Assembly: GCA_029194535.1 (NCBI GenBank)
Contig: JARFXR010000001.1
Location: 874,721-938,720 of the forward strand
Direction of reading: 5' to 3'
DNA from: Nitrospira sp.
GTDB taxonomy: Bacteria > Nitrospirota > Nitrospiria > Nitrospirales > Nitrospiraceae
Length of the DNA stretch: 64,000 nt
Within the stretch, counting starts at the first letter, position 1, and every line of letters begins with the position of its first letter. A program made the translations under genes and the position numbers. Below are positions 9,855 through 29,329 of this stretch, piece by piece. The notes below the pieces were generated by a model, which saw only the letters and a program-made list of their open reading frames with translations, had not been told where the DNA came from and ran no database searches.

Positions 9855-12800
9855 ATGGCTGCGCCGCAGGCCCGGCCTAAGTTCCGGACCAAGCGGTGTC
9901 GGGACGCCGTCAGCCTCGGCAGCAGGTTCATGATCGCCTCCATGCTGCTGATGGTCGCCGGGTGCGCCGTAGCGCCTTCCTTCGGGCGGAGCGGACCGAG
10001 CAGGGACGACGTTCAAGCTCCGAGCGAGGCGGACATGCAGCGGATGATGAAGCAGATGATGGGCCAGGCCCCGACCCGCCAGACGGCGGTCAGCACCGAC
10101 GGTGTACAGGTGGTCTTTCAGACCGGCCATGCGGGCGCGATCCAGGCCGTGGCGGTCAGCCCGAACGGGCGGTATATCGCGTCGAGCGGCAGCCAGGACG
10201 GGACCGTCAAGATCTGGGATGTCACGAGCGGACAGGAGGTTCGGAATTTTACGGGATTCGGCGGATTCGGTCAGGGGGCCGACCTTGTCGCGTTCAGCGA
10301 AGACAGCGCGCATGTGGTGACCCATGAGATGAGCGGAGCGGTCAAAGTCTTCGACGTGGCGTCAGGGCGGGAGATCCGCGCGGGAGGGTCGGGCCTGGAC
10401 GGCAGAGGGGCCGTGAGCGGGGACGCTCGCATTGCGGCGGTGAGCGAGACGGCCGAAGTCAAATTCAACGACCGGCCGTCACTCGGCGGGGCTCGGCCGT
10501 TGTCGGTCGTCGATCTCGGGACCGGTCGAACGATATGGACGATCCCTGACTCAGCCATGCAGCAGCCGCTCGTGTTCAGCAGAGACGGCCGGACATTGAT
10601 CACGGTCCGGACCGACACAGAAATGTCCTCCCAGAGCGTGATCGGGACCATCGGCTCGTCGCTCGGGGCGATGACCGGCCTGGGTGGTTTCTTCAGCGAG
10701 CCCTCCATCCCGACCATCAAGCAAGAATTGCTCGTCTGGGATGTGCCGGCAAAGAAGCTGCGGCGTTCGTGGCCCTTTACGCCGGCGTCGGACGGCATCG
10801 GCGGAGCGCTGAGCCCGGACGGACGCTATCTTGCGATGGAACAGCATGTCGAGCGATCGCTTCGCGTGCTGGATCTGGAGACGGGCAAGCCCACCGTGGC
10901 CATCTCGTTAGGAGAGGTCGGGATGAAGGGAATGGGCATGACCCATTCCCTCGCGTTTAGTCCGGATGGAAAGTTTCTCGCGATTGGAAGAGGCGACGGC
11001 ACCGCCAAGTTGTTCGAGTTCCCCTCCGGTCGGACGGTGCGGGAGTTCGAGGCCACGTCGCTCAACTTCAGTCCCGACGGTACAACCTGGGTGATCGGTG
11101 CGGCGAGCGGTGGGGCGCCCTATCTGCAAGAGGCGGCCGGCGGGAAGGAGACGCGATTGGCCGGCGGCGCGAGCGAAGTGTCCGATCTGGCCATGACGGC
11201 CGACGGACAATCGATCGTGGCCGGCATGCACGGGGGAAGCGCCAAGCTCTGGGATCTTCCCACCGGGCAACTGGTCCGCACCTTCGACTGCCCCGACGGG
11301 ATGGCGGTTTCTTCCGTCGCCGTCAACCGCGTCGGTTCCCGGTTGGCCACCGGTTGTGTGAACGGTTCGGCATGGCTGTGGGATCTCATCAGCGGCAAAC
11401 GATTGAACAGGCTGGCGCAGCCGCTTCCGCCGGATCAGTTCACGCCGGTTTATCTCCGCATCGCGCGAGACGACCGGACGATCGTCGTCGGTCGAGGCAA
11501 TCAACTGGTCGTCGCGGATCTCTCCTCCGGAAATGAACTTCGTCGGATAGTCCTGCCGAATGAATCGGTCAAGGCGCTCGCGTATCTGGAGAACCCCTCG
11601 AAGCAACCCTCCATCGATCGGGAAACCCTTGAACAGATGAAAGAGTCCGCCCAATGGGTTCGAACCCTTGCCGTCCATCCAAACGGGCAGCTGGTCGCCA
11701 TCGGAAGGTCCGAAAGCACGAGCCTGTGGGATGTACGGACCGGCAAGCTGGTCCGTGAACTCCGCGATGTGAGCCGATTGCAAGACAGAGCGCAGCAGCA
11801 ACGGCTGCGAGACGAAGAGAATCAACTGATGCTTGACGAGGCCGGGAGCCTCAAATCGCTGTTGCCCTTCGGCCTGGGAGCGCCGTCTCGATCGATGGCG
11901 ATGCCGCAGGGCGAGATCGTGACGCTGGACGACCCCTCGGAACTGTTCGACGGACTCGGTGACGAGATGCAGGGCGCGACGAGCCTGGCCTTCAGTCCCG
12001 ACGGGACGTTCCTCGTGACCGACGGCGTGAAAGGCAAGGCCGTGTGGGAGGTCGCAACGGGGAAGAAGGTGCGCCCGTCAAGAAAGAAGATGCCGGAGTC
12101 TCAGTTCGATCCATTGAGCCTCACCGAAAACATGGAACTGAACATCGGCGGAAGAGGCGCGGCGTTCAGCCCGGATGGCCGATGGGCGGCGCGAGGCCAC
12201 GGACAAATCATCAAGGTGTGGAATGTCTCGACCGGCCAGGATGTCCTCCAACTGGTCGGGCATACGGGAGCGGTCAGCTCCCTGGTCTTCAGCCCTGACG
12301 GCCGGTTCATCGTAAGCGCCGGCGGAGACGGCGCGATTCGCCTCTGGAACCTGCGCTCGGGCAAGGAAGTCGCCTCGCTCATCGCGCTCGGACGAGAGGA
12401 TTTCGTCGCGGTGACGCCGGATCAGTACTATCGGGCATCCAAGAGCCGGATCAAAGGCGTCGCCTTTCGTGTCAAAGATCAGCTGTACCCCTTCGAGCAG
12501 TTTGATTTGCGATTCAATCGGCCTGATATCGTGCTGGAACGTTTGGGCATGGCATCCCAGGATCTCGTCAGGAGCTATCGGCTCGCCTACGAAAAACGGC
12601 TCAAGAAAATGGGGCTCAGCGACCAGGCGCTCGGCATCGACTTTCACCTGCCGGAAATTCACATCCGGGGCGGCGACGTCCCGGTGTCGGTCACCCGCGG
12701 CATCCTGCCGCTCCGCGTCAAAGCCACCGATACCAAGTACCCGCTCGATCGCCTCCAGGTCTATGTCAACGACGTGCCAGTGTACGGCACGTCCGGTGTG

Positions 12801-13832
12801 CCGATCCTGAACCGGACGGCACAGACCTATGAGCGGGAGATCGAGGTGCCTCTCGTGTCGGGACGCAATAAGATCCAAGTCTCCGTGCTGAATCAGCGAG
12901 GAACCGAGTCGCTGCGCGAAACGGTCTATACGACATCCATGGCGGAGATGGCGCCTCCGGACGTCTATCTGGTGGGCATCGGTGTCAGCGAGTACAAGAA
13001 CCGAGCCTACAATCTGCGGTATGCGGCCAAGGATGCGAACGACCTGCTGGCCCTGTACAAATCGGTCGAGGAGCGTCCCGGCGTGAAGGGGAAAGTCCAT
13101 CTGTTGGACCTGACGAACGAGAAAGCGACCAGACCGGAAATCCTGAAGGCCAAGGATTGGCTCAAGCGATCCAGGGGCAACGATCTGGTGATCGTCTTCG
13201 CCGCGGGGCACGGGATGACCGATGAACAGTCCAACTACTATTTCGGCACGCACGACATCGATCCCAAACAGCCTGCCGCGAACGGCCTGCCCTATGAGGA
13301 ATTTGAACTCCTGCTCGACGGCATTCCCGCGCTCCAGAAAGTCTTACTGCTCGATACCTGTTTCTCCGGCGAAATTGACAAGGATCAGGCGGTGTTGGTG
13401 GCCAAAGCCGACGCGGGTGGTTCCGGCACGGTCACCATGCGGTCGTTTAAGGCAGCGCGGGGCGTCAGTCTGGTTGCGGACGTGGGCGATGGGCAGGGGA
13501 ACACACCGACTGAACCGCGGCTCCCCACAGACATGGTGAAGTTTCAACAGGATTGGTTCGCCGATCTGCGGCGCGGCACCGGCGCAGCGGTCATTTCCAG
13601 TTCCAGCGGCAACGAATACAGCCTGGAAGGGGAACAATGGAAGAACGGCGTGTTTACCTATGCCCTAATGAACGGCCTGAAGAACCACGGCGCCGATGCC
13701 AATAAGGACCGAACCATCACCGTGAGCGAACTGCAAGCCTACGTGATCGAACAAGTGCGCAAGCTCACGGAAGGAGGCCAGAATCCGACCGTGCGGCGGG
13801 AGAATCTGGAGCATGATTTCGTCGTGTATTGA
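9855..13832 (+). CDS. Exported lipoprotein: WD40 beta-propellers, Ig-like region and C-terminal caspase-like (peptidase C14) domain
   Basis: Lipobox MVAGC; WD repeats (GHAGAIQAVAVSPNG..KIWDV, GHTGAVSSLVFSPDG..RLWNL); catalytic FAAGHG and LLLDTCFSG. Start uncertain (9828/9855/9930). Confidence 0.88.
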   Translation: MAAPQARPKFRTKRCRDAVSLGSRFMIASMLLMVAGCAVAPSFGRSGPSRDDVQAPSEADMQRMMKQMMGQAPTRQTAVSTDGVQVVFQTGHAGAIQAVAVSPNGRYIASSGSQDGTVKIWDVTSGQEVRNFTGFGGFGQGADLVAFSEDSAHVVTHEMSGAVKVFDVASGREIRAGGSGLDGRGAVSGDARIAAVSETAEVKFNDRPSLGGARPLSVVDLGTGRTIWTIPDSAMQQPLVFSRDGRTLITVRTDTEMSSQSVIGTIGSSLGAMTGLGGFFSEPSIPTIKQELLVWDVPAKKLRRSWPFTPASDGIGGALSPDGRYLAMEQHVERSLRVLDLETGKPTVAISLGEVGMKGMGMTHSLAFSPDGKFLAIGRGDGTAKLFEFPSGRTVREFEATSLNFSPDGTTWVIGAASGGAPYLQEAAGGKETRLAGGASEVSDLAMTADGQSIVAGMHGGSAKLWDLPTGQLVRTFDCPDGMAVSSVAVNRVGSRLATGCVNGSAWLWDLISGKRLNRLAQPLPPDQFTPVYLRIARDDRTIVVGRGNQLVVADLSSGNELRRIVLPNESVKALAYLENPSKQPSIDRETLEQMKESAQWVRTLAVHPNGQLVAIGRSESTSLWDVRTGKLVRELRDVSRLQDRAQQQRLRDEENQLMLDEAGSLKSLLPFGLGAPSRSMAMPQGEIVTLDDPSELFDGLGDEMQGATSLAFSPDGTFLVTDGVKGKAVWEVATGKKVRPSRKKMPESQFDPLSLTENMELNIGGRGAAFSPDGRWAARGHGQIIKVWNVSTGQDVLQLVGHTGAVSSLVFSPDGRFIVSAGGDGAIRLWNLRSGKEVASLIALGREDFVAVTPDQYYRASKSRIKGVAFRVKDQLYPFEQFDLRFNRPDIVLERLGMASQDLVRSYRLAYEKRLKKMGLSDQALGIDFHLPEIHIRGGDVPVSVTRGILPLRVKATDTKYPLDRLQVYVNDVPVYGTSGVPILNRTAQTYEREIEVPLVSGRNKIQVSVLNQRGTESLRETVYTTSMAEMAPPDVYLVGIGVSEYKNRAYNLRYAAKDANDLLALYKSVEERPGVKGKVHLLDLTNEKATRPEILKAKDWLKRSRGNDLVIVFAAGHGMTDEQSNYYFGTHDIDPKQPAANGLPYEEFELLLDGIPALQKVLLLDTCFSGEIDKDQAVLVAKADAGGSGTVTMRSFKAARGVSLVADVGDGQGNTPTEPRLPTDMVKFQQDWFADLRRGTGAAVISSSSGNEYSLEGEQWKNGVFTYALMNGLKNHGADANKDRTITVSELQAYVIEQVRKLTEGGQNPTVRRENLEHDFVVY

Positions 13833-13901
13833 ACGGGCAGGAGCCCGATCCATTGAACCTTTTCGTCGATGGATCGACTGATGGGTTAGAGGAGGACCAA
13901 T

Positions 13902-15059
13902 ATGAGACACGTAAGGTGCCCATGGATAGTGGGGCTAGCTTTCGGAGGATTACTTACGGTTGCGATCGTGTATCTGGCCGTCGTCACCGGCGCGCTCGCA
14001 CCAGACACTGCTGAGGCGGCGGCAATGTCCGCCGATGACAGAACACCCACTCCCTCCGACGCCGCTCCGCACGAAGACGTCCAGCCGCGCGCCCTGAAAC
14101 CTCCCAGGGATCCCGCACGGCCCGATACGCTCGAAGAGCGTCTAGGTCGCGGCCATATTCCTATGGTGGCGCCACCGCCGTCGCTCGTTCAACAACCGGC
14201 AATCACCGGTGGCGCGTTCGCCTGCATGGCCGACGCGGCGAGTCGCGATCTCGCTGGTTCGTGGGTCATCGATTACACGCGCATGACGAATCAAGCCTGC
14301 CGCAGCTCGTGCGCACAGTATGGATTCGCCTTTGCCGCGACGCAGTACGGCAGCTCCTGTTTCTGCGGCAACACTTTCGGAAAGTACGGCGAAGCCGCCT
14401 CGGCCTCTCCGCCTAGAAGTTGCAACCTCGGATGCGCGGGCAATCCGAACGAGGTATGCGGCGGGGAATGGGCTAACAGCCTTTCGCTCACTGGCGCGCC
14501 GCCGCCCGCGCCCACGGATGGAGGCCAGTGTCTTGTCAAGGCGCAAGGAACCTACATGACGACGGGAGGCGCTGCGGGAACTTACAACGGCGTCGAGTTG
14601 CACCGCTGGAAGAAAGTGGCGACGATCTCGTCGACGCCGACGATGAAGACTTATCAGTTTCAATACACGATGAGCGTCAGCGGATTCATGGATCAGACAG
14701 GCGCGGGCGGACAGTGGCGTGGCACGTGGGGCGGGACGGCCACGCGCATGGAGACTTGGCAAGCGCCCGTGGTCACAAACCCTGCGACGGGACAGCCCGC
14801 GTTTCGGCTAACCACGACGCCGTCATTCTCTACCACCGTGCCCTATACAGGACACCTGCTGAATCCATTGCGGCCCGATCCGAGGATGTGGGCGACGGTG
14901 AGCGCATTCGCGCAGCCACAGCATTTGTTTTCATCGGGCACCTCGTTCGTCGTTGCGGCGTCGAACGGCTCAACAAGACAGGCGACCGGGGCCACATGGA
15001 TTTGGAACAACCCGCTGGGTGACGCGACGTTCACTTGTAGCTGGAATGTTTCCTTGTAG
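13902..15059 (+). CDS. Secreted or membrane-anchored WSC-domain protein
   Basis: GGAGG RBS and N-terminal hydrophobic helix. Cys pattern C..D...RDL..MT...CR..C...G..FAATQYG..CFCG..C...C.GN..E.CGG at about 14208-14492. Confidence 0.8.
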   Translation: MRHVRCPWIVGLAFGGLLTVAIVYLAVVTGALAPDTAEAAAMSADDRTPTPSDAAPHEDVQPRALKPPRDPARPDTLEERLGRGHIPMVAPPPSLVQQPAITGGAFACMADAASRDLAGSWVIDYTRMTNQACRSSCAQYGFAFAATQYGSSCFCGNTFGKYGEAASASPPRSCNLGCAGNPNEVCGGEWANSLSLTGAPPPAPTDGGQCLVKAQGTYMTTGGAAGTYNGVELHRWKKVATISSTPTMKTYQFQYTMSVSGFMDQTGAGGQWRGTWGGTATRMETWQAPVVTNPATGQPAFRLTTTPSFSTTVPYTGHLLNPLRPDPRMWATVSAFAQPQHLFSSGTSFVVAASNGSTRQATGATWIWNNPLGDATFTCSWNVSL

Positions 15060-15166
15060 TGGCGTCGACCCATCGGCGTGATCGAGGTAGGCAACATGGC
15101 GCTTAGCGATGATTCGCAGCGTTCGTTTTCCCGGAGAATTTCGCCAGCAGGGCTGATTGGTTAGCG

Positions 15167-15457
15167 ATGAGAAACGTCATATTGATGTTCGCCGTATTCC
15201 TGATCGGCGCGGCGGTCATTTCCAGTTCCAGCGGCAATGAATACAGCCTGGAAGGGGAGCAGTGGAAGAACGGCGTGTTTACGTATGCGCTATTGAACGG
15301 CTTGAAAAACCACGGCGCCGATGCCAATAAGGACCGGACGATCACTGTCAGCGAGTTGCAGGCCTATCTCATCGAGCAGGTGCGGACCCTCACCCAGGGC
15401 GGCCAGAACCCGACGGTGAGGCGGGAGAATCTGGAAAATGACTTTGTGGTGTATTGA
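15167..15457 (+). pseudogene. Diverged second copy of the caspase C-terminal 83 codons fused to a signal-peptide-like leader
   Basis: 15206-15457 aligns without gaps to 13581-13832. Manual comparison gives 28 synonymous and 5 non-synonymous codon differences. Confidence 0.8.
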
Positions 15458-15543
15458 AGATGAACCGTGAGGTATGAATTCAATGCCCGCGAGGCGTTCC
15501 ATGCGAAGCGGCGGCCATCCAAATGGCAGAACCCGGATTGAGT

Positions 15544-17565
15544 ATGAGAATCGCAGTTCGTGATGCCTTGCTCGTCCTGGGCTGCTCGCTGTCGGTCGCC
15601 TGTACCGCGAGCGATCGAGCGGAGAAACCGGAAGACGGCGTCGCGCAACAGACCGCTGCCGGCAGCGTGGCTGCTCCAGGCACGGACGGAGCAGCTTCGG
15701 AAATCGAGGGCATCGAATCGCGCGGCGTCCAAAATCCCGACCGTCCGATTCTCCCGCCGAAGGATCGATTCACACCGCTTCCTTCGAGCCCTCCATCAGG
15801 ACCGCAACTCACGCCGGTCACCCCGCCTCCGCCTCCACCCCCCACCGTTTCACCGGTCCTCGTCGTCCCGGAGTTCCTATCGGAACGATTCGCCATGCCG
15901 GTCCCCTGCGAGGGCCGGCCGTTCTGCTGGCTCAGTCGTCGCGGGGCTGGGTCGCTCGATGAATCCTTCGAATATTTTCGCAACCTCGGGCTTGCCAAAT
16001 GCAGCGATCGCTGGCTTTCATGCGTCGAACAATTCACCGACTCGCTGAATCAATTCAAGGTCCGCAACGGTTTTTCGGCCGGACAGGGAGAAGTCAGGGC
16101 TACGTACTTCAACAACATCGACCTGCGGATCGGCCGTGATATGCATTGCCGTCGGAACATGGGCGGGGTCGCCTGTTATGTCTCCAACTATGGGCCACCG
16201 GCATTTCTCAATGGAGGAGCGAATCCCGCCTATCCGGACCCTCATGCCGCGCTGATAGAAGCCGTCCAAGCCGCTGGAGGTCTCGTCACGCCCGGCTCTC
16301 TCCAACAGCCGGCGACCGGCGCCCTCAGTGCGCCCGGTACCTTGAAAAACGCTCGTCCTTCGACCGGAACCGGTTCAGCACCGGCATCGCCGAAGCCGTT
16401 GGCGACGGTGGCGATGGAATACCATCCGGCGCCCCCGCTCAAGACCGTGGTCGTCCGGGAGCGTGACGGGTTGTTTACGCAGCCGAATCCCGAAGTCTGC
16501 GTCGGCAGCCGGAGTGAGGGACCTCCCAGCCGTCAGGATGTGGACACGGGTATCGATGTCATTCCGGGCGACGTGATCGAATTCTCGGCAAGTGGATCCA
16601 TCTGGGGCGGTGAATGTCTGACCGGCAACAACGGTCCTTCCGGATGGGGGCCGAGGCCGGACAATCCTAAACTGCCGATCAGGAATGCGTCGCCCTTCGG
16701 TTTGATCGCACGGATCGGTCAGCCGAACGACGCCGGAGCCTATCAGGACGTCGACTGCGTCGTCACGTACGATGAGTACGGCCAGACCCCTCCGTGCAAA
16801 CCTCGCCCTCCGTATTTTTTCATCGGCGACCGCCATACCCACACGATTCGCGCCGCCGGTGGGCGCTTGTATCTTCGTGTCAACGACGATCGGCCGGGAA
16901 ACGGAGTGGGGTCATTTGTGGTGTCGATCACGGTCCATCGGCAGGTGACGTTCTACGTCTACGACCAAAACGGTGGACTCGTTCCCAACGTGGCGCTGGA
17001 CCGAGAAGGGCCCAAATTCGCGCCCCACATGTGCCTCGCCTGCCACGGCGGCACCTACGATGAGCCGACCCACACGGTGCGCGGCGCCTCGTTCCTGCCA
17101 TTTGACGTCTACAACTTTCTCTACCATGAGATTCCGGGATTTCGCCGCGTGGATCAGGAAGTGAAGTTTCGCGACCTCAATCTCCTGGTGGCTGAAACGA
17201 GTCCTAGCAAGGAGAATCCAAACCGTCCGATCGCTCGCATGATCGACGGCATGTATCGGGCGCCGAGCGGGATGGCGAATGCGGCGGCCGTCCATTATGT
17301 TCCCGCAGGCTGGCGCGGCCACGAGGATCTCTATCGTGATTTCGTAGGGAAGTATTGCCGTCTCTGCCATATGGCGCAGCCCGCTCGCATCGATTTCGAG
17401 ACGTATGACAACTTCAAGCAGTCGAACCCTGGCGCGGCGATCTGTCGATTCGGCACCATGCCCCATGCGCAGGGACCCTATGACCATCTGGCGACCGGAC
17501 GTTATTCGACCAAGGTCGGAGATGAGCTTCGTGCGCTGGGAGTCGGATGCATCAAGAAATCATGA
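15544..17565 (+). CDS. Lipoprotein with two CxxCH heme-c motifs and a LecA/PA-IL-like beta-sandwich
   Basis: Lipobox LSVAC; CLACH (17032-17046), CRLCH (17356-17370) and MPH; segment DTGIDV.PGD.IEFSASGSIW..GPSG..LIARIG..GRLYLRVND..NG.GSF.V.I. Confidence 0.7.
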   Translation: MRIAVRDALLVLGCSLSVACTASDRAEKPEDGVAQQTAAGSVAAPGTDGAASEIEGIESRGVQNPDRPILPPKDRFTPLPSSPPSGPQLTPVTPPPPPPPTVSPVLVVPEFLSERFAMPVPCEGRPFCWLSRRGAGSLDESFEYFRNLGLAKCSDRWLSCVEQFTDSLNQFKVRNGFSAGQGEVRATYFNNIDLRIGRDMHCRRNMGGVACYVSNYGPPAFLNGGANPAYPDPHAALIEAVQAAGGLVTPGSLQQPATGALSAPGTLKNARPSTGTGSAPASPKPLATVAMEYHPAPPLKTVVVRERDGLFTQPNPEVCVGSRSEGPPSRQDVDTGIDVIPGDVIEFSASGSIWGGECLTGNNGPSGWGPRPDNPKLPIRNASPFGLIARIGQPNDAGAYQDVDCVVTYDEYGQTPPCKPRPPYFFIGDRHTHTIRAAGGRLYLRVNDDRPGNGVGSFVVSITVHRQVTFYVYDQNGGLVPNVALDREGPKFAPHMCLACHGGTYDEPTHTVRGASFLPFDVYNFLYHEIPGFRRVDQEVKFRDLNLLVAETSPSKENPNRPIARMIDGMYRAPSGMANAAAVHYVPAGWRGHEDLYRDFVGKYCRLCHMAQPARIDFETYDNFKQSNPGAAICRFGTMPHAQGPYDHLATGRYSTKVGDELRALGVGCIKKS

Positions 17566-17680
17566 AACCGCTTCGGACGAATGGAACGGTTCCACCGCAG
17601 TCAAGGTGGTCATGATGAACTGTCCGTCCCTTGCTTCAAGCACGTCACCTATCGGCACCGTGTCAAAAAGGAGAGAAGCT

Positions 17681-20959: not shown

Positions 20960-22228
20960 GTGCTGGCTTGCACAAAGAATTTACTTCTGTTGATTCTGTT
21001 GCTTGCCGGATCCGTCGCGGTTGCGCAAGAACGACTGCAGTTACCGCGCTACAGCCTTGAGGTGCCAGCCGGGTGGACCTCGCAGATCGACGGTGAGCGC
21101 TGGCTGATCCATCCCGTCGGCGCCGCGAACGAGTTGGCCATTGCGCCGGTGGGGACCGGCATGGTTGTCGGGGCGACAGTCACGCGAGTGGACGCACATC
21201 GGCAGCTCTGGGCCAGCGCCTTGGGCAGTCGTCATGTGGTTCAGGCCAATCCGACGCAACAGGACAAGGATGACGAGGGACGGACCTGGACCATCGACTC
21301 GGCGGCAATCGAAGAGGGAGGCGTCGTCTATCTGCTCGTGTTGAGCGTTGTCGAAATGAATGGCCGCATGGAGGGATTTCTTGTGCTCGGGACGCCGGGC
21401 GCAGTCGAGCGGAACCAGACGGCGATCGACGCGATTCTCAACTCGGTACGCCCCCGCCCTGTCACAAGTGCTACAGCGCGGACGCGTGACAAGACGCCCG
21501 TCTTTGGCCAGCCTAGCCCGCTCGGGACACCGGGCACCGGCCGCATGGCCGGAGTCTGGACCGCGACGACCCATGAACTGCGCTACGGGCTTGGTGGGCT
21601 TGCCAACAAACCCGTGGTCTCGGAACTGATCCTGTTTGCCGACGGCGCGGCGCTGTGGGGGATGCCGGGCGAGGGGCTGCTCGGTTTCGATCGCGCGGCG
21701 CACCGCGCGCAGTGGCCCGAGCGTTGGGGGACCTACCAGCTCAATAATAAGCGGCTCACAATCACCCGTGGCAAAGAAGCACGCCAGTATGTTGTGCTCC
21801 CGGATGGAGCGCTTGAGCATCGTTACACGGAAGGTGGCAAGGAGCGGACGGGCGAGCGGTTTCTTGCACGCCCCAGCCTGGATGGGATGCAGCTCGACGG
21901 CGAGGTACGGCGCAAGGACCATTGGCCGGCGCCGGGGAATACGAGTGGCATCGGCACCGTGCCGGGCTGCACGTTTCTGACGGACGGCACCTTCCGTGAT
22001 GAAAAGCTGATGTGGATTATGTTGCCGGAGCGAGCGGGCGACAGGAAGGACGCCCACGAGGCTCGCGTAGCTCCTGGTTCCGGACGCTACCGGCTCGAAC
22101 ATTGGACACTCGTGCTGGAATACGACGACGGGCGCGTGAACCAGGTCAGTTTCGTGGTCACGGACCGCGACCACCCGACCAAGGGCGCGATCCTGAATGG
22201 GTACCCGATTGAGGCCAATCCGCATTAG
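20960..22228 (+). CDS. Secreted hypothetical protein
   Basis: Long ORF with signal peptide LLLLILLLAGSVAVAQ. GTG start at 20960 chosen (ORF track begins 20864). Confidence 0.7.
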   Translation: MLACTKNLLLLILLLAGSVAVAQERLQLPRYSLEVPAGWTSQIDGERWLIHPVGAANELAIAPVGTGMVVGATVTRVDAHRQLWASALGSRHVVQANPTQQDKDDEGRTWTIDSAAIEEGGVVYLLVLSVVEMNGRMEGFLVLGTPGAVERNQTAIDAILNSVRPRPVTSATARTRDKTPVFGQPSPLGTPGTGRMAGVWTATTHELRYGLGGLANKPVVSELILFADGAALWGMPGEGLLGFDRAAHRAQWPERWGTYQLNNKRLTITRGKEARQYVVLPDGALEHRYTEGGKERTGERFLARPSLDGMQLDGEVRRKDHWPAPGNTSGIGTVPGCTFLTDGTFRDEKLMWIMLPERAGDRKDAHEARVAPGSGRYRLEHWTLVLEYDDGRVNQVSFVVTDRDHPTKGAILNGYPIEANPH

Positions 22229-22428
22229 GAACTGTGTTGAACCTTCCGACTGGCCGGACGACTAACGAGCGAGTGTGCAAAGGAGAGACCTATGCGAAAC
22301 CCAACACCATGCGTGTGGCAACGTCGGTGGGTGCCTGCACGCAGGACGCGTTGACCTCGTAGGCCTTCTTGATCGACAGCGTCGGCCTAGAAGGCGTATC
22401 GGATGGGATCGTGGTGCCGTAACAGGCT

Positions 22429-22734
22429 ATGAAGCGAACGGATCGTACCATGCGACTCGCAGGAATGACCTGGATCGTGTTAGTGGCGATGTTGGCGGCG
22501 CCGCTCGGCGGGGTCGCCGGAGCATCTCCGACAGGGAGACATCCGTCATCGGCACCTCAAAAGTCGGGCGCGGAGTCATCCTTTCAAGAGAAGGCAGCCG
22601 GCAAGGCCGACGGCAAAGAGGTCCAGTCGCGCGGGCTTTTTTCAAAGAAGAAGAAAAAGAAGTTGACAGGCGGCGGGGCGGCGGCGCAGTCACAACCATC
22701 TGAGCTGACCGATCCACCCGTCATGGACCGCTAG
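22429..22734 (+). CDS. Small secreted protein with a VQSRGL motif followed by a hexa-lysine tract
   Basis: Signal peptide (WIVLVAMLAAPLGGVAGA), then KEVQSRGLFSKKKKKKL. Confidence 0.65.
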   Translation: MKRTDRTMRLAGMTWIVLVAMLAAPLGGVAGASPTGRHPSSAPQKSGAESSFQEKAAGKADGKEVQSRGLFSKKKKKKLTGGGAAAQSQPSELTDPPVMDR

Positions 22735-22778
22735 CGATCGGGAGGCCGGTTACCGTCGATACGCAAGGCAGGTCATTC

Positions 22779-23492
22779 TTGAAGTCGCCGCTGCGTAACC
22801 TTCCTCTTGTCGGGCCGATAGAAGCCCGGTACGACCGGCAGAGCGCGTTTTCCTACGCCTGTCGCGCCTGCTGCCGCTGTTGCCACGATAAGATCATTCA
22901 CCTCAATCCGTATGAAGTCGGCCGGCTGGCCATGAACCGAGGGATCACGACGACCGAGTTTCTGTCCCGCCACACGGAATCCAACGGCACGTCGCTCCGA
23001 CGGGACGAGGAGGGTGCTTGCGTGTTTCTGGCTCCTCAGGGATGCGCCGTGCACGCCGATCGCCCCTTGGTCTGCCGACTCTATCCGCTGGGACGACGGG
23101 TGACGGCAGAGGGAGCGGAGCGGTTTCATGAGCTGATCCCTCATCCACAGACCGAAGGGGAATACGGGACGAGCGGAACGGTCGACGCGTTCCTGTCGCG
23201 GCAAGGAGCGCACCCGTTCATCGAAGCGGTCGACCGGTACATCGAGCTGGTCGCGCGCATGGCCGCCGCCTTGGTCGCCAAAACAGGCGGCGCCGGCGGA
23301 TCTCAGCGCGAGGTTGGTGATGTCATGAGCCAGTTGGCAAGCAGCGATGGGAAAGACATTCCCGACTGGCTGGATATGGACCTGGTCGTCGGCCGGTATT
23401 GCGAGCAGAACGGGCTGATCGGGCCGACACAGGTGGAACAGAAGTTGGCGCTGCACATCCAGGCTATCGTAGCCTGGATGGAAGCCGTCTAA
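22779..23492 (+). CDS. YkgJ/FliB-like CxxCxxCC Fe-S/Zn-cluster protein
   Basis: CRACCRCC, CVFL, C.VHADRPLVCRLYP; TTG start. Confidence 0.82.
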   Translation: MKSPLRNLPLVGPIEARYDRQSAFSYACRACCRCCHDKIIHLNPYEVGRLAMNRGITTTEFLSRHTESNGTSLRRDEEGACVFLAPQGCAVHADRPLVCRLYPLGRRVTAEGAERFHELIPHPQTEGEYGTSGTVDAFLSRQGAHPFIEAVDRYIELVARMAAALVAKTGGAGGSQREVGDVMSQLASSDGKDIPDWLDMDLVVGRYCEQNGLIGPTQVEQKLALHIQAIVAWMEAV

Positions 23493-23512
23493 CATTCGAC
23501 AAGGAGGCAATC

Positions 23513-23812
23513 ATGGATCGGAAGAAGAGGGCGGAGTCCGGACAGGAACAGTCACGCCGGCTGGCAGCGGCGCTTGCCCTGTTGAGCGTCTCGGTCGGTG
23601 TGGACGTTCAGACCGCGCTGGCCTCCTCGTCGCCATCACCGATGCCGCCGGAGGGCATGTCCAGACCGGGAGCCCGGATGAAACCGGACGCCACACAGCA
23701 GAAGTTCGATAAGACGCAGCAAGAATTCGACGCTACGCAAAGGAAGCTTCCTTCTGTACAGGATAAGGATCGGGTGATGCCCGGTATGAAGCCGGCCACG
23801 CCGGTACGATAG
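23513..23812 (+). CDS. Small precursor-like peptide with a hydrophobic leader and xxxQx[KE]x heptad repeats
   Basis: Strong AAGGAGG RBS; leader LAAALALLSVSVGV; repeats DATQQKF DKTQQEF DATQRKL PSVQDKD (23687-23770). Confidence 0.7.
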   Translation: MDRKKRAESGQEQSRRLAAALALLSVSVGVDVQTALASSSPSPMPPEGMSRPGARMKPDATQQKFDKTQQEFDATQRKLPSVQDKDRVMPGMKPATPVR

Positions 23813-23863
23813 GGAACGGGAGAGAAATGTGTCAGGACAGAAAGGAACGTTCACACAAATCTA

Positions 23864-23879
23864 CGTGAAATTATTCACA
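23864..23879. promoter_or_regulatory. CRP-like box CGTGA-N6-TCACA
   Basis: cgtgaaattattcaca, 54 bp upstream of ATG 23934 in an AT-rich spacer. Confidence 0.45.
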
Positions 23880-23933
23880 GGCTGGATGAGTGAAGGGGTA
23901 TGAAGACATGAGCGGTTCACAGGGGGGTGACCG

Positions 23934-25610
23934 ATGAAAAGCCTATGCAAGGGTGAACGGAAGAGAATAGGTTGGACCTGTGCGATGCTCGCAGCGGTCG
24001 GTATGCTGGCAGCCTGCTCATCGGCTGAGAATGTCTCGCAAACGGGCGAAGGCGGCATCGAGAGCAGAGGGGTTGGTCAGATGCAGAGGCCAGGGAAGGC
24101 GGGGATGCAACCGCCATCGAGCGGGATCGGCCAAGCCAACGCACAATTGCCGACCTTCCCGCAAAAGTTCGAAGTGCAAGGACCGGAATCGGACTCGTTC
24201 GGCTTCGCCGTGACGCAGCCTGGGTCGATTATTGTCGAAGTCCAAGGTCAGGGCGCGCCGGTTCTCGTGACATTGGAATCCCCTGGCGGCCAGTCGATCA
24301 CGAAGCAGGCTACGGGTAGTCTCCGGATGACCTACAACGTCACCTCGCAAGACGTCCAACGGAATCTCTTTTGGGCCATACAGATTCGCCTGGCTCAACC
24401 GATGCCACCGCAGCAGGGAGGCCGGGCTACGGGAACCGTGAATGTCCAGCATCCGCCAGCTAATTCATCGCAGGTCCGATCAGCGTTGGCCGCCCAGCAA
24501 CAGGCCGTGCAACAGCAAGCGGCCCAGCAACAAGCACAGGCACAACAGGTAGAGGCGCAAGCAATAGCTCAGGCGGATCAGGCATTCCAACAGCGTAAAG
24601 TGCAGTTTCAACAGCAGCTGGCAAGTCGACGGGCAGCCATGATCGCGCAGATCCAACCCCAGCTTAGTCAACTACAGAATCCGATGGGTGGGCAAGTGCG
24701 GCATCGGGGTGTTGAGGGGACCAGTCCAGCAGCCGACGATCCCGCGAGCGATGTCACTGACGAAATTGGGACTCGTGCGCTCAAACCCGCTGGTGGCTTA
24801 AAGGAAGCTGCAATCGGTGTACGGCCCCCGGTGATGTCCGCGATGCAAGAGCCTGTCAGTTCGCAACAGGCACTCGGTTCGGCCGGATCCGGTCCGCCTC
24901 CGCAGCAGGTGATGCCCAATCCGACAATCAACTCGTTGAGTGTGGGTGGACTTGGTCAACCGAGTGATCAGGTCATCATTAACGGGAGCGGATTTGGCAC
25001 CAACGGGGGAGAGGTGCATTTCATCCTCGGTCCGAATAAAGATGTTACCTATACAGGCCAGGCTTGGTGGTACGACAACCAAATCCTGGTCCATGTGCCG
25101 GACGAAGACAAGTTACGAGCCTACAACGGCTTCGTGTACGTGGTAAGAAATCCGGACAAGACCAAGTCCTCGCTCACGCCGTTTCATTTTGAACCGGCGG
25201 TAGATTTTAGGACGATCATCTATACACAAGATAGGAACATCGGGCAGCCGGGAGCTGATTACAAGATCATCGGTGGGAATAGTAATCTCGGCCATCAGGA
25301 AATACGGCACGGGAATGACAATCCCTTCGTCGGTTACAAGGGGAACGATGAATTTTTCACCAATGCGAGGCTGGCAAATGACTGGGTTCTCGACGAGGTG
25401 TTCCTCACGCCGACCCGCTTTAAGCGGGGAGGAGCATATTTTCAGGAGAAGAAGCTCGGAAGCAACTGGCCCTATTTTAATGTGAGATTCTGGGTGGATG
25501 GCTGTTTTGGAGATACGGAGTCATTCAGCAAATACATTTACATCGTTTCAATCAGAGGGCCCAAGGGTGTCCCCGATGGTCTCGTCTGCACTCAGGCGCC
25601 TTGCCCGTAA
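23934..25610 (+). CDS. Lipoprotein paralog of 17681-20737 with one copy of each module
   Basis: Lipobox LAAC; PTFPQKFEVQGPESDS at 24150; Gln-rich coil; IPT/TIG; C-terminal GPKGVPDGLVCTQAPCP. Confidence 0.82.
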   Translation: MKSLCKGERKRIGWTCAMLAAVGMLAACSSAENVSQTGEGGIESRGVGQMQRPGKAGMQPPSSGIGQANAQLPTFPQKFEVQGPESDSFGFAVTQPGSIIVEVQGQGAPVLVTLESPGGQSITKQATGSLRMTYNVTSQDVQRNLFWAIQIRLAQPMPPQQGGRATGTVNVQHPPANSSQVRSALAAQQQAVQQQAAQQQAQAQQVEAQAIAQADQAFQQRKVQFQQQLASRRAAMIAQIQPQLSQLQNPMGGQVRHRGVEGTSPAADDPASDVTDEIGTRALKPAGGLKEAAIGVRPPVMSAMQEPVSSQQALGSAGSGPPPQQVMPNPTINSLSVGGLGQPSDQVIINGSGFGTNGGEVHFILGPNKDVTYTGQAWWYDNQILVHVPDEDKLRAYNGFVYVVRNPDKTKSSLTPFHFEPAVDFRTIIYTQDRNIGQPGADYKIIGGNSNLGHQEIRHGNDNPFVGYKGNDEFFTNARLANDWVLDEVFLTPTRFKRGGAYFQEKKLGSNWPYFNVRFWVDGCFGDTESFSKYIYIVSIRGPKGVPDGLVCTQAPCP

Positions 25611-25611
25611 C

Positions 25612-25765
25612 TAGAACCTATCTCACAATGGGTGTTCCGGTCAGAACTGGTCATGCCCGCGAAAGCGGGCATCCAGAATGACCTGAAAAGGCTGGATTCC
25701 CGCCTGCGCGGGAATGACGACCACAGATCCCATCCCATCATGAATGAAATTTGAGATAGGTTCTA
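25612..25765. mobile_element. MITE family B (154 bp), copy 1
   Basis: 14-bp perfect terminal inverted repeats TAGAACCTATCTCA and an internal palindrome doublet. Inverted copy at 41871-42024 with about 4 mismatches. Confidence 0.88.
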
Positions 25766-25796
25766 ATTACATATTGGAGCAGCTCAATTACTTTTC

Positions 25797-27329
25797 TCAC
25801 TGGCTGACTCGGTCCAGTAGCTGCACCCCTCGCTTGAGCACGTCGGGGCTGCCGATCAACTGCGGCACCTGATCGTTGTTGTATTCTCGTCGTGCCACCC
25901 GTTCGACTTCCGGTTTCACATAGCCGTAGAGTTCCGAGATCTCGATCCTGCCGTCTTTATTCGTATCAGCCGCACCCTGCAGACCCTTGAGGAAGAAATA
26001 GGTAAACAGGCCGTGATTTTTTTGATCATAGGTGCTGGAAATCTGTGACGCGGAGCTGGCCGTCAGCACTACGATCTTGTCGCCGGTCAGGACCGGGTTC
26101 TCCATACTGATCACGAGCGGCCGAGCGCCCTTCGCAATCACCGATCGTCCTCCGGAGCCGGAGAAGCAGGAATCGAGCACGACCAGGATCTCTCGGGCCG
26201 GCAATTTTGCCAATTGTTCGTAGAGCCGTTTCAGCGGGTACCCGGTAATTTCCAGAAAAGTCGGGTCGCCGTCATACGGAACCAGGAATCCCTCTTGAGT
26301 TGCCGGATTCGGAGCGCCGTGACCGGAGTAGTAGATCAGCAGGCTGCTATCCTTGTCCACACGGTTGGGGAGCCAGCGCTCGATATACTTTTCCAAATCG
26401 CTCTTGGCGGCCCGTTCATTGACGACCATCACGACGTTCTCGTCAGGGTAGCCCAGAGACTTCGTCAGATATTCCCTCAGAATGTACGCGTCGTGCGAGG
26501 CGAATTCGACAGCCGGCAGGCTCTGGCGATATTGCTCGATCCCGATGATGACGGCGTAGCGCGTGCTTTGTCGTTTTCCCGCCCCCGGCGGAAGAATGTC
26601 CACATCGCTTGATCGTTCCGCGCGAGTCACAGTGGTCGTCGCTCGATCGGCCGGTTTTTGGGGAACGTTTCGCGCGTACGCAACCAACTGCGGCGAGTTG
26701 GCGAGCCCCCGCCCCATCTGTTGCAGGGCGTCGATGATCGATTCACGCAGAGCGATCGTGACCGCGCGGTCCTTGTCCGCGCTGGTTTGGAACAGGGCGT
26801 CTTGGTTATGGGTCTTGGATTTGAAGGTTTCCGTGATGATCGCTTGACCCTGCCGGTCCATCACGGTCACCGGCACTGCGGCGCGCCCTTCAAAACTGTC
26901 GGTCGGACTGGTGAATATGTAGAACGGGCCGAGGAGGTAGAGGAACCTTCTGGACAAGCAATGTCCATCCGCCGCCAGCTCCAGAGCTTTGGGCTCGACC
27001 ACCACGTCATAGTGGCCGACGGCCAGCCCCTTGTCGTTGACGACATCGACGGTTTCGAACAAGGGCGAGAGGGTCTCCGCCATTCCTGTTTCGAGCTCGT
27101 TTCCGATGGGAATCTCGTAATTCCCTGCGCAAGATACGTCGTACGTGGAGACCTGATTCCGAAGCTGGTCGGGAACCACCAGCGCGGCGCTGACCGGAAA
27201 CTTCTTCATCTTCATCGAAGGAACTGAGGTGTTCAACGGGAGCTTGGTCGGCGCGCAGGCTTGGATGCCTGTCGCCAAGGCCAGAAACATAAGGGCCAGC
27301 CAAGCCCTTTCCATCCGACAGGGTTTCAT
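25797..27329 (-). CDS. Lipoprotein with C-terminal caspase-like (C14) domain
   Basis: Lipobox IQAC; YAVIIGIEQY, YYSGHG, VLDSCFSG, HGLFTYFFLKGL..D.NKDG.I...EL; RBS before ATG 27329. Confidence 0.88.
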   Translation of the reverse strand: MKPCRMERAWLALMFLALATGIQACAPTKLPLNTSVPSMKMKKFPVSAALVVPDQLRNQVSTYDVSCAGNYEIPIGNELETGMAETLSPLFETVDVVNDKGLAVGHYDVVVEPKALELAADGHCLSRRFLYLLGPFYIFTSPTDSFEGRAAVPVTVMDRQGQAIITETFKSKTHNQDALFQTSADKDRAVTIALRESIIDALQQMGRGLANSPQLVAYARNVPQKPADRATTTVTRAERSSDVDILPPGAGKRQSTRYAVIIGIEQYRQSLPAVEFASHDAYILREYLTKSLGYPDENVVMVVNERAAKSDLEKYIERWLPNRVDKDSSLLIYYSGHGAPNPATQEGFLVPYDGDPTFLEITGYPLKRLYEQLAKLPAREILVVLDSCFSGSGGRSVIAKGARPLVISMENPVLTGDKIVVLTASSASQISSTYDQKNHGLFTYFFLKGLQGAADTNKDGRIEISELYGYVKPEVERVARREYNNDQVPQLIGSPDVLKRGVQLLDRVSQ

Positions 27330-27406
27330 GTCTGCTTCCTTCTTCACGCGAGCCTCGCGACGACGATCTTCGCCACTATACAGACTGACCATCTCACGGC
27401 AACTCT

Positions 27407-29329
27407 TCAGTGCTCATGAATGGTGAAGGCCTGGCCGTCCTCCACCCATGAGACCTTCGCACGATGAAGTTTTGCGACGAGATGGAAGTAGGTGCCCTGT
27501 CCCGGTTGATCCTTTCCGGTTGAAGCATCAGAACGGTCACGGTCATCCTGAGCCGGATCGAGGAGCGACGGCGAGACGGGTGTTTTGGTTGCGATGACCT
27601 TGATCATCTCGGCGGCGCTGGCGGACCCTGCCGGAAGGCGGGCTTTCAGCTTCAGGCCTTTTTGGCGCAGATCCTCGCTGGGAAAGATGAATTGCCGTTC
27701 CGCGCGAATCAGGTTCTCCTTCGCATAGTCATTCGGAAACAGAAGACTCGCATTCTGGTCCCGGTCAATACTGTAGATATGCACATAGGCATCTTTGGTC
27801 GCGCTCACATAGACGATGCCTTCGTCTCCGTCAAGGAAGGTGCTTCGATTCATCGCGAGCGAAACCCTGAAGTCCCGATCGCCACGGTCGGTGAACGGGA
27901 GGAGGCAATCTTTCAGCTTCACCTCGTACTCGCAACTCTGGCACCGGTCCCCGTTCTCCACGCGGGATGAGATGATCTCTTCCTTAAGAATGTGCCCTTC
28001 CTGAGTCATCCTCAACAGTTGGTCGGTGAGTGCAGCCTGCCCCTTGAGATCGTTCGCCTGCATGAAGTCCACAAAACTGTTTTGTACCTTGATGCCGAGA
28101 AAGTGGCGCATGGCTTTCGCTCTCGCCTGTGAGATCGCTTGCGCCTGCGCCTGGTGCCTGGTGTTGTGTTCTCCGAACGGGACCCGCGCCGTTGAACTCA
28201 CCCAGGTACAGCCGGCCGGATCACGATCGAGAACCAGAACCTCCGAAAGGTGAGCGGAGGCGGAACCGGAATGTTTTGGTTCCAATCGGTTGACTTTCGG
28301 CCTCATGGCGTACTGAGCGGCTCCCGCGCGGGAATCCTGCTCCACGGTCGTCGCTCGGCCCGGCCGGTCGGCGAGGCCGGTCTGCTCTGCCGACTGTTTC
28401 AGATCGGAAGCCGGTTCACCGGCAAGGCGGGACACCTTGCTTCTGTGGGTGAACACAAACTCTCCCTTTTCTGCCGCCAACGACCATAACTCGGGTCTCT
28501 GCGTATGCCCTTTGAGCTGGGCAGCGGCGTAGACCCGGCTGTCCAGATAGGTATAGAGTTCGGAGGCCGGGATGATGCCGTCGTTGTTGAGATCCGCCAA
28601 ACCTTCTTCGATGCCGTTCAAGAAGTAGTGCGTGAAGACGCTGTGCCCCCATTCAGGTGACTCCAAGGCCTCCTGATCCGCGCCACCTGCTGTAATGACC
28701 TGCCGTCCCCGCTCCCTGGTGATCAGTCGGACATAGTCTTCGGTCGTTTTCGACAGGCTCGCGCTTCGAAAGGATTGTCCGGCGATGCCCCCATAACAGG
28801 AATCGACGACGAACAGGACATGCTTGGACGGCAGCGCATCGGCCAGCTCTTTGATCAGTCCCATGCTGATACTCGTTCCGGCAAAGTCATCCATCTCGCC
28901 GTCCACCGGAAGGAGGTACCCCATGACCTTTCCACCCTCAACTTTCTGCTCGACCCCATGCCCGGCATAGTAGATCAGGACACGATCCCGCGGGGACACC
29001 CGCTTGACGAGTTTACCGCCCAATTCGCTGACGATGGCGCGACGGGTGGCCTGAGCGTCGTAGAGTACGGTGGTCTGGAAGCCCTGCGTCTCGAGCGCAT
29101 GCGCCACTGCCTTGGCATCGGAAACGGCATAGCGTAGCTTCGGGGCATATTGGTATCCATCTATGCCGATGACGACGGCCCAGGCCGCGCCGGTTTGCTC
29201 CGTGACATATGCGGCCGCATCGCGGCCGTCGATCGTGATGCCGGCCTTGGCGTGGATCGGGAAGAGAAGAAAAGGAAGGACGATGCGAAGGAGGAACCCG
29301 CTCACTACCCAGGTGAACGGCCGAAGCAT
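27407..29329 (-). CDS. Secreted caspase-like (C14) protein with an LPP20/FlgT-N-like middle domain and C-terminal DUF4384-like domain
   Basis: Signal peptide; AVVIGIDGY, YYAGHG, VVDSCYGG, HSVFT; C-terminal F.DGD....YV...KDAYVHIY.ID....SLLFPN..EMIKVIAT. Confidence 0.85.
   Translation of the reverse strand: MLRPFTWVVSGFLLRIVLPFLLFPIHAKAGITIDGRDAAAYVTEQTGAAWAVVIGIDGYQYAPKLRYAVSDAKAVAHALETQGFQTTVLYDAQATRRAIVSELGGKLVKRVSPRDRVLIYYAGHGVEQKVEGGKVMGYLLPVDGEMDDFAGTSISMGLIKELADALPSKHVLFVVDSCYGGIAGQSFRSASLSKTTEDYVRLITRERGRQVITAGGADQEALESPEWGHSVFTHYFLNGIEEGLADLNNDGIIPASELYTYLDSRVYAAAQLKGHTQRPELWSLAAEKGEFVFTHRSKVSRLAGEPASDLKQSAEQTGLADRPGRATTVEQDSRAGAAQYAMRPKVNRLEPKHSGSASAHLSEVLVLDRDPAGCTWVSSTARVPFGEHNTRHQAQAQAISQARAKAMRHFLGIKVQNSFVDFMQANDLKGQAALTDQLLRMTQEGHILKEEIISSRVENGDRCQSCEYEVKLKDCLLPFTDRGDRDFRVSLAMNRSTFLDGDEGIVYVSATKDAYVHIYSIDRDQNASLLFPNDYAKENLIRAERQFIFPSEDLRQKGLKLKARLPAGSASAAEMIKVIATKTPVSPSLLDPAQDDRDRSDASTGKDQPGQGTYFHLVAKLHRAKVSWVEDGQAFTIHEH

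Follow-up and report, generated by a model that had tools for sequence, protein, structure and literature searches.

To our knowledge, the bacterial caspase-family enzymes that have been characterized (MaOC1, Craspase, and the gasdermin proteases) are cytoplasmic, and we know of no characterized exported homologue, though the genes are abundant in Nitrospira. Three candidates are described here from a 64,000-nucleotide stretch of a Nitrospira sp. genome (assembly GCA_029194535.1, contig JARFXR010000001.1, positions 874,721 to 938,720 of the forward strand), hereafter called the window. The source organism, from activated sludge, is related to N. japonica. The three proteins, P1, P2, and P3, each combine a Peptidase_C14 (C14) domain with a predicted export signal. 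Judged from sequence, and with a probability of roughly 0.55, they are envelope-located, Arg/Lys-specific, and probably Ca2+-binding peptidases which process exported proteins encoded alongside them, these proteins being marked by a short arginine motif, here called the tag.

The density of C14 homologues was found to be highest in Nitrospirae, and the commonest C14 fusions are to WD40, Sel1, TPR, and FGE-sulfatase domains (Asplund-Samuelsson 2012, PMC3501461). The N-terminal helices of bacterial C14 proteins were regarded as probable signal peptides, and extracellular roles were considered conceivable (PMC3501461). For cyanobacterial orthocaspases, fusions to DUF4384 and WD40 have already been listed. 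Because exported C14 homologues and fusions of both kinds have been catalogued, P1, P2, and P3 are new members of a known, uncharacterized class rather than a new kind of protein. They share the fold, the catalytic dyad, the acidic S1 pocket, and an Arg after the catalytic Cys with bacterial C14 homologues (orthocaspases, MaOC1 of Microcystis, and GSU0716, 3BIJ), but the characterized ones are cytoplasmic whereas P1, P2, and P3 carry conserved export signals, two of them as lipoproteins. In P1 the WD40 region is N-terminal to the C14 domain, the reverse of the C14-NACHT-WD40 order. Eukaryotic metacaspases and MALT1 (Yca1, 4F6P; CgMCA1, 7QP0; AtMC9; MALT1, 3V4O) are the best structural matches to a model of P2, and Ca2+ dependence is plausible from this likeness. 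However, identity to them is only 14-19%, accessory domains and compartment differ, and the candidate Ca2+ site is here an EF-hand-like loop in the C-terminal part of the domain.

Type III-E Craspase (Cas7-11, the TPR-CHAT protein Csx29, Csx30, Csx31, and the extracytoplasmic function (ECF) sigma factor RpoE) likewise links a caspase-like protease genetically with an ECF sigma factor and with the inhibitor of that factor, as do gene clusters in relatives of this locus (below, the sister clusters). Craspase cleaves Csx30, modulating the ECF sigma factor; a C-terminal DUF4384 is present in some of the Csx30 substrates (bioRxiv 10.1101/2022.08.17.504292). CHAT proteins are also found in the genomic context of ECF54 sigma factors (PMC8999054). 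In contrast to Craspase, this locus has no CRISPR genes, its proteases are exported and of the C14 rather than the CHAT type, and the window is without an adjacent sigma/anti-sigma pair. The resemblance to Craspase and ECF54, drawn by analogy, is therefore one of working principle and not of membership. A further likeness is to regulated anti-sigma proteolysis by periplasmic site-1 proteases (DegS/RseA, PrsW/RsiW, and Prc in cell-surface signaling), since the anti-sigma factor of the sister clusters has the arginine motif just outside the membrane, the usual site-1 position, and an exported protease gene stands in the anti-sigma operon. A C14 enzyme in the site-1 role was not found in the literature searched, and such a role would not extend to the locus in the window itself. 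The same literature yielded no paper tying ECF sigma factors to Peptidase_C14 or DUF4384 clusters. Similarly, no description was found, in the literature searched, of an exported WD40-C14 / C14-DUF4384 cluster (with an ECF pair in relatives) combined with a shared arginine motif.

Catalytic Features and Predicted Export of P1, P2, and P3

A first-pass annotation of the window had described three C14 open reading frames (ORFs) with three different architectures within 20 kb, and these are present at the coordinates it gave:

9855-13832, plus strand: P1, lipoprotein with WD40 repeats, putative beta-sandwich, and Peptidase_C14, 1325 aa (Pfam; sequence in NCBI)
9954-9965, plus strand: P1 lipobox V-A-G-C37, fitting PROSITE pattern PS51257
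10110-12464, plus strand: P1 WD40 beta-propeller region, aa ~86-870 (PF00400 at 156.9 bits, with matches to many beta-propeller families)
12492-12959, plus strand: P1 linker or putative beta-sandwich ("Ig") region, aa 880-1035 (weak Pfam matches)
12978-13820, plus strand: P1 C14 domain (Pfam and catalytic motif positions)
13020-13037, plus strand: P1 S1 Asp motif YAAKDA, in the C14 domain
13206-13214, plus strand: P1 His1119 (GHG)
13353-13361, plus strand: P1 Asp1167/Cys1169 (DTC)
13695-13730, plus strand: P1 EF-hand-like loop
25797-27329, minus strand: P2, lipoprotein, 510 aa (Pfam; sequence in NCBI)
27255-27266, minus strand: P2 lipobox IQA-C25
26664-27254, minus strand: P2 family-specific alpha/beta N-domain, aa 26-222
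25857-26564, minus strand: P2 C14 domain, aa 256-491, with Asp280, His337, Asp386/Cys388, and an invariant Arg395 loop
25932-25967, minus strand: P2 EF-hand-like loop
27407-29329, minus strand: P3, secreted protein, 640 aa; P2 follows on this strand after 77 bp
29243-29329, minus strand: P3 signal peptide, aa 1-29
28481-29182, minus strand: P3 C14 domain, aa 50-283, with Asp71, His124, and Asp176/Cys178
28322-28339, minus strand: P3 inter-domain linker motif QDSRAG...MRP
27902-28240, minus strand: P3 unassigned middle domain, aa 364-476
27578-27835, minus strand: P3 DUF4384, aa 499-584 (Pfam)

The exact sequences of all three, with the same start codons, are present in NCBI. Peptidase_C14 was matched at aa 1042-1322 of P1 (47 bits), aa 256-491 of P2 (65.8 bits), and aa 50-283 of P3 (67.9 bits), against a Pfam gathering cut-off of 21.4 and over 223-232 of the 233 profile positions; the three domains are only 24-29% identical to each other. 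The claim of catalytic integrity holds, with GHG and D[ST]C dyads in each protein: His1119 (AAGHG) and Cys1169 (DTC) in P1, His337 (SGHG) and Cys388 (DSC) in P2, and His124 (AGHG) and Cys178 (DSC) in P3. The dyads of P2 and P3 are invariant in their orthologue alignments, and the GHG and DSC motifs of P3 align with those of the Geobacter C14 protein GSU0716 (3BIJ). An AlphaFold model of P2 (predicted local distance difference test score, pLDDT, of 80) gave MALT1 paracaspase, yeast Yca1, AtMC9, and the C. glabrata metacaspase as top Foldseek matches (E ~1e-10 to 1e-9). When P2 is aligned with metacaspase-1 (7QP0), Asp280 meets the "ND" Asp and SGHG meets SGHG.

In metacaspases and orthocaspases, two acidic residues in the S1 pocket lead to cleavage after Arg or Lys. 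All three C14 domains have an Asp in an "xDA" motif after strand 1 (YAAKDA in P1, FASHDA in P2, and YAVSDA in P3) and a second Asp two residues before the catalytic Cys. Because these two S1 residues are conserved, cleavage after Arg or Lys is predicted for each protein. By the same residues, the three fall on the metacaspase/orthocaspase (C14B-like) side of peptidase family C14 (clan CD). Ca2+ binding is likewise predicted, because each C14 domain contains an EF-hand-like loop (DANKDRTITVSE, DTNKDGRIEISE, DLNNDGIIPASE) of the canonical form DxNxDGxIxxxE. The loop motif of the P1 C14 domain is VTMRSFKAARGV. Moreover, caspase-family enzymes are usually (auto)processed in the loop after the catalytic Cys, where each of the three domains has a conserved Arg that likely marks such a site. 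The near full-length profile match, together with the strands and helices that come after the loop in the P2 model, suggests a p10-like part.

Export signals had also been proposed for all three proteins, and they were recovered here. The N-terminus of P1, MAAPQARPKFRTKRCRDAVSLGSRFMIASMLLMVAG-C37, contains the lipobox MLLMVAG-C37 and that of P2, MKPCRMERAWLALMFLALATGIQA-C25, the lipobox ATGIQA-C25 (both PROSITE PS51257), while the predicted Sec type-I signal peptide of P3, MLRPFTWVVSGFLLRIVLPFLLFPIHAKA before a Gly, has a charged n-region, a hydrophobic h-region, and an AxA site (AKA before G). These signals are conserved in orthologues while the sequences drift. The P1 lipobox is kept as MLLMVAGC in Nitrospira sp. 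NFB02 (full-length orthologue, 84.5% identity), ALSGC in locus L019, and LLTAC in locus L020; among 115 P2-type matches the N-terminus is hydrophobic in 102 and carries a lipobox in 89; and the P3 signal pattern is kept in 12/12 orthologues. The N. japonica P2 orthologue is annotated as an "exported protein of unknown function". A good Shine-Dalgarno sequence precedes the starts of P2 and P3, and a weak one that of P1. Taken as predictions, these features make it very probable that all three proteins are exported, active peptidases.

Further searches placed P1 within the WD40-C14 family. A full-library search with its N-terminal 700 residues returned ~15 collinear cluster representatives of about 1200-1310 aa. 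Because 13 of the 15 representatives carry an N-terminal signal and ~10 of them a lipobox, P1 is assigned to a distinct, predictedly exported clade, for which the motif DGVQVVFQTGH of the first WD40 repeat is specific. Outside this clade, relatives of the C-terminal module of P1 that belong to other phyla (Nannocystis, Bacteroidota, Calditrichota) had no signal peptide, and when the export heuristic was applied as a control to WD40-C14 relatives from other phyla, 1/67 scored positive.

The accessory domains fared unevenly. WD40 in P1 and DUF4384 in P3 (PF14326, aa 499-584, 56.8 bits, gathering cut-off 27) were found above the Pfam cut-off. The "Ig" region of P1 does have beta-sandwich matches, but these are sub-threshold at E about 0.08 (RSC4_Ig_like, E 0.079; Cadherin-like, E 0.093); the region is conserved also in relatives without WD40. 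The LPP20-like domain (PF02169) assigned to P3 could not be recovered, with no Pfam match at E<=10 and none in a profile search of PDB sequences. Indeed, the P3 middle domain (aa ~355-478) matched no Pfam family at E<=10 and nothing in the PDB profile search. In P2, ~250 residues without a known family precede the C14 domain. This N-terminal domain matched no Pfam or NCBIfam family and gave only noise against PDB sequences (DotZ, E 0.07; LptE, E 0.73), and the Foldseek list for the P2 model was occupied by matches to the C14 half.

Co-conservation in Relatives

Stretches of relatives used for comparison are numbered with an L, NFB02 being L003. A synteny survey had been suggested in the first-pass annotation, and in it the gene block was found to be kept in close relatives and its protease pairing in distant ones. 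The lack of co-conservation that the annotation had named as refuting its proposal was therefore not observed. NFB02 keeps the block OEP-P1-WSC-g680-...-CxxC-g558-P2-P3-GH63 in synteny; N. japonica does so for the part from g680 to P3, including the P3-P2 adjacency. In L019 the order is P1-WSC-...-g1110-g558-g454. A LysR gene lies upstream of P3 in NFB02 and N. japonica, and none is found there in the window.

Diverged loci are stronger evidence of co-conservation than these close genomes. In five diverged metagenomic loci, a P1-like lipoprotein gene is divergent from an operon encoding an ECF sigma factor, a zf-HC2 anti-sigma factor, and a C14-DUF4384 protein; identity to the P1 N-terminus is 50% in L026, 49% in L023, ~41% in L020, 37% in L025, and 35% in L029. 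L023 and L026 contain an additional DUF4384 lipoprotein gene, and a g558-like lipoprotein gene lies downstream in L026. P2-type genes are absent from all five clusters. In L013, however, a stand-alone DUF4384 gene (aligning with P3 aa 413-581) is followed by a P2-type gene at 57% identity. The metagenome scan returned mostly generic WD40 proteins; P1-clade members came only from L026-L029, with usable context only in L026 and L029.

Near the more distant P2-type genes (L013, 10454-13039; L015, 14538-16373), genes for CsgG-like and GNA1162-like lipoproteins were observed, and in L015 an Ank-C14 gene is divergent from the P2-type gene. In the window, a single sigma-like ORF was seen (52744-53412, plus strand), 23 kb from P3; it is ECF-sigma-like, with phmmer E 1.8e-11 against the L023 sigma factor.

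An Arginine Motif in Exported Neighbors

Export signals were called on 9/10 genes from P1 to P3 (including the WSC protein, g680, g1110, g558, g454, and g137), the sole signal-less gene between P1 and P3 encoding a CxxCxxCC protein. The neighbors concerned, with g454 listed for context only, are:

13902-15059, plus strand: WSC-domain protein with N-terminal membrane anchor (Pfam WSC, 62.3 bits), motif variant VQPRAL at 14079-14096
15523-17565, plus strand: g680, lipoprotein (LSVA-C27), tag IESRGV at 15712-15729, CXXCH at 17032-17046 and 17356-17370
17681-20737, plus strand: g1110, secreted repeat/TIG-like protein and g558 paralogue, VRSRGL at 18389, IGTRAM at 18449, IRSRGL at 19028
20864-22228, plus strand: g454, exported, function unassigned, signal-like N-terminus, 72% N. 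japonica orthologue
23934-25610, plus strand: g558, lipoprotein (MLAA-C28), tag IESRGV at 24057-24074 and IGTRAL at 24765-24782, convergent with P2

Within 9600-29400, the motif [VI]-x-[ST]-R-[GSA]-[VLIM] is found 0.63 times per 1000 aa. The figure is 0.03 for the remaining window and 0.04 for unrelated loci totaling 418,000 aa, an enrichment of ~15-fold in the region. In g680 and g558 the tag lies 15-35 residues past the lipobox Cys or signal peptide, conserved inside otherwise variable linkers. The g680 tag is EGIESRGVQNPDRP, with VESRG[IVL]P in 5/5 orthologues down to 61% identity, and those of g558 and its paralogues are GGVESRGVGQMQRP, GEVESRGMPKIERP, and AGVESRGAPQMPRP. Tags were also found in the L019 WSC protein (ENIESRGL), in the protein directly downstream of the P1-like gene in L023 (GADSRGVPMLKQP), and, for L026, in the g558-like protein whose gene lies downstream of the P1-like ones (GEVGTRGL). 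Related sites, [IV]R[SH]RG[VL] and IGTRA[LM], occur in internal linkers of g1110 and g558.

The same motif recurs in the ECF-linked clusters. In the anti-sigma factors it lies in the periplasmic juxtamembrane linker with the Arg invariant in 5/5 (HITSRSIG, EVASRSL, EVSTRSLG, GVASRGG, QVVARGL), and in 4/4 ECF-linked C14-DUF4384 proteins the post-Cys loop reads DIRTRS[VIL]P. Looser forms are present in the post-Cys loop of the P1 family (MR[SA]FKAARG[VI], with RG[VIL] in 66/88 sequences) and in the P3 inter-domain linker (QDSR[AT]G...[MT]RP). A motif common to the protease loop, the exported neighbors, and the cognate anti-sigma factor is the pattern expected from one cleavage specificity, and the motif may thus be a cleavage site of these proteases. 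Beside these sites, KEVQSRGL followed by a lysine run was observed at 22621 (plus strand) in a small ORF (22423-22731) that lies between g454 and the CxxCxxCC gene. N. japonica has no called gene at this place, and the occurrence may be chance or a decayed tag.

Among the alternatives, the one that survives best accepts the tag as real but supposes that it serves in docking or sorting, or is cut by another protease, with the C14 substrates elsewhere. Its extended form, VESRG-x4-5-RP, exceeds the length of a typical cleavage site, and WD40 propellers do bind peptides without cutting them. Against this, the invariant central Arg fits the predicted S1 specificity, the motif occupies the canonical post-Cys processing loop of the ECF-linked C14-DUF4384 enzymes, and its juxtamembrane position in the anti-sigma factors is typical of site-1 cleavage. 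We regard this alternative as unlikely, if still a serious one.

Proposed Mechanism and Remaining Alternatives

If the tag is a substrate mark, the enzymes would act in the periplasm or at the membrane surface on tag-bearing exported proteins, cutting [VI]-x-[ST]-R-[GSA]-[VLIM] after the Arg. A cut at the tag would shed g680 and g558 from their lipid anchor, or mature them, and the linkers of g1110 would likewise be targets. Docking would fall to the WD40 propellers of P1 and to the DUF4384 module. As a mechanism drawn from sequence patterns, this substrate-tag scheme is tentative, with the odds against it. In its widest form, WD40-C14 and C14-DUF4384 proteins would make up an extracytoplasmic tag-directed system, recognizing the tag in lipoprotein linkers, in the anti-sigma linker, and in their own activation loops; this is a speculative proposal. 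Within the sister clusters the protease could act as a site-1 protease on the anti-sigma linker, freeing the ECF sigma factor, and to judge from motif and operon a link to anti-sigma cleavage is likely there. Since the window is without an ECF/anti-sigma pair, this part of the model rests on relatives.

Several observations weigh against the reading of P1, P2, and P3 as envelope peptidases that process tagged neighbors. The post-Cys loops of P2 and P3 lack the full motif, and the motif itself could have a role in binding, sorting, or structure that has nothing to do with C14 cleavage. The export calls come from a hydrophobicity and lipobox heuristic rather than a dedicated signal-peptide predictor. 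The synteny across three Nitrospira genomes could be simple inheritance, because the proteins are 75-85% identical among them. No ECF sigma/anti-sigma pair is adjacent to P3 in the window, NFB02, or N. japonica; L017 (P2 type, 43%) has no C14 or DUF4384 neighbor, and L021 and L022 (P1-like, short contigs) have unrelated neighbors. Metatranscriptome contigs are patchy on P2 and P3, with none on P1 and none across the P3-P2 junction. Finally, the P3 model built from 12 close orthologues (pLDDT 40) is too poor for fold comparison of the middle domain and DUF4384.

Some of these points would also suit three functionally unlinked envelope proteases, brought close by chance among many C14 paralogues and held together by kept gene order. 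Such an arrangement could be expected where C14 density is the highest reported (PMC3501461) and where Nitrospirota have hundreds of paralogues with an FGE-sulfatase, Sel1, Ank, PDZ, or TPR fusion, and both the low identity among the three domains and the missing association in L017, L021, and L022 agree with it. However, P1-type genes adjoin C14-DUF4384-type genes in five loci which are diverged (35-50% identity) and otherwise differ in context, a P2-type gene (57% identity) has a stand-alone DUF4384 gene as its partner, and the motif is common to at least six non-homologous proteins of these clusters. Lack of any functional link is on this evidence rather improbable.

The first-pass annotation had favored a periplasmic or surface proteolytic cascade with the WD40, LPP20-like, and DUF4384 domains as sensors or adaptors. 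Spelled out in three steps, an exported C14 protein would sense through WD40 or DUF4384 and cleave and activate the next, like initiator and executioner caspases. All three proteins are indeed predicted to be exported, intact, co-located, and co-conserved, a motif-like site lies in the P3 inter-domain linker, and each post-Cys loop has its conserved Arg; one trans-processing step between proteases might be possible through the P3 site. Yet nothing shows order or dependence, and the conserved loops are equally explained by autoprocessing. The genes from P1 through g558 lie on the plus strand, and P3 followed by P2 on the minus strand, convergent with g558 and ~12 kb from P1; because of the opposite strands and convergent arrangement, P1 and P3-P2 are separate transcription units. 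Moreover, P2-type genes are missing from the five ECF-linked clusters, and many Nitrospirota paralogues with other fusions occur singly. An ordered cascade is thus beyond the evidence and improbable, and the shared motif points to common substrate recognition instead.

That the three are cytoplasmic cell-death or anti-phage effectors, with signal peptides that are start-codon artifacts, is hardly credible: WD40-C14 relatives in other phyla (e.g. Nannocystis) do lack signal peptides and the generic "caspase" model of PADLOC matches P2 and P3, but PADLOC gave generic domain matches only, export signals persist across diverged orthologues despite sequence drift, the starts of P2 and P3 follow good ribosome-binding sites, and Pfam and PADLOC scans of the neighbors, nearly all of them exported, found no gasdermin, NLR/STAND, NACHT/NB-ARC NTPase, CRISPR, or toxin partner.

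If the tag-directed system exists in its widest form, it would be the first pathway of envelope signaling and maturation in which a caspase-family enzyme is the driver, and would give the sigma control by Craspase an exported equivalent. The locus and its relatives supply a concrete candidate cleavage motif, candidate substrates next door, and, in the sister clusters, a testable link to ECF sigma factors, so that the question of bacterial caspase roles beyond cell death becomes experimentally approachable. In wastewater plants and soils, Nitrospira are the main nitrite oxidizers. Formation of their microcolonies and flocs may involve these enzymes, should surface proteins with TIG-, WSC-, or lectin-like regions be shed or matured by them.

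Neighboring Genes

A fourth C14 piece, which the first-pass annotation did not mention, was found between the WSC gene and g680:

15205-15457, plus strand: remnant of the last ~83 P1 codons (phmmer E 2.4e-49 against the P1 C14 domain)

DNA alignment with the 3' end of P1 showed similarity over the last ~250 bp (84% mean column identity in aligned windows). The remnant shares its terminal ...DFVVY stop with P1, and g680 begins 66 bp downstream of it; NFB02 has the remnant too (L003, 7699-7947). No WSC gene was found between P1 and g680 in L002 and L004. From the remnant before g680 and the direct P1-g680 order in L004 (55-bp gap) and L002, it follows that the WSC gene was inserted into an older P1-g680 junction.

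g680 is the best-conserved gene of the block in the compared stretches (82% to N. japonica and 84-90% to NFB02, depending on the stretch) and matches no Pfam family. Because it has two CXXCH motifs (CLACH and CRLCH), it may bind heme c. Relatives of its C-terminal part at 28-32% identity occur in Alphaproteobacteria, Steroidobacteraceae, and Cellvibrionaceae (L005-L010), where they have no C14 neighbors. Relatives of g1110 adjoin P1-like genes in L019 and L020. In both g1110 and g558 a module of ~110 aa (LPTFPQKF.VQGPESDS.GFAVTQPGP) is repeated. Both also have a coiled stretch rich in Q, along with a TIG-like domain and a common C-terminal domain; they have no Pfam match, and further paralogues occur in NFB02, N. 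japonica, L019, L020, and L026.

A scan for promoters and terminators did no better than on shuffled sequence. Where g558 and P2 converge, assembler depth in the gap (25610-25770) rises from ~200 to ~2270 in DNA run X1, with many loose ends, which suggests a multi-copy repeat element. Upstream of P1, a resistance-nodulation-division (RND) transporter region (1321-6555, plus strand) looks rearranged: two copies of the ACR_tran N-terminal half (1321-2934 and 2940-4871) precede a C-terminal half (4855-6555), after which come HlyD-type and OEP genes. On the far side of the block, an LCCL-domain protein (PF03815, 121 bits) is encoded at 38885-39832 on the plus strand.

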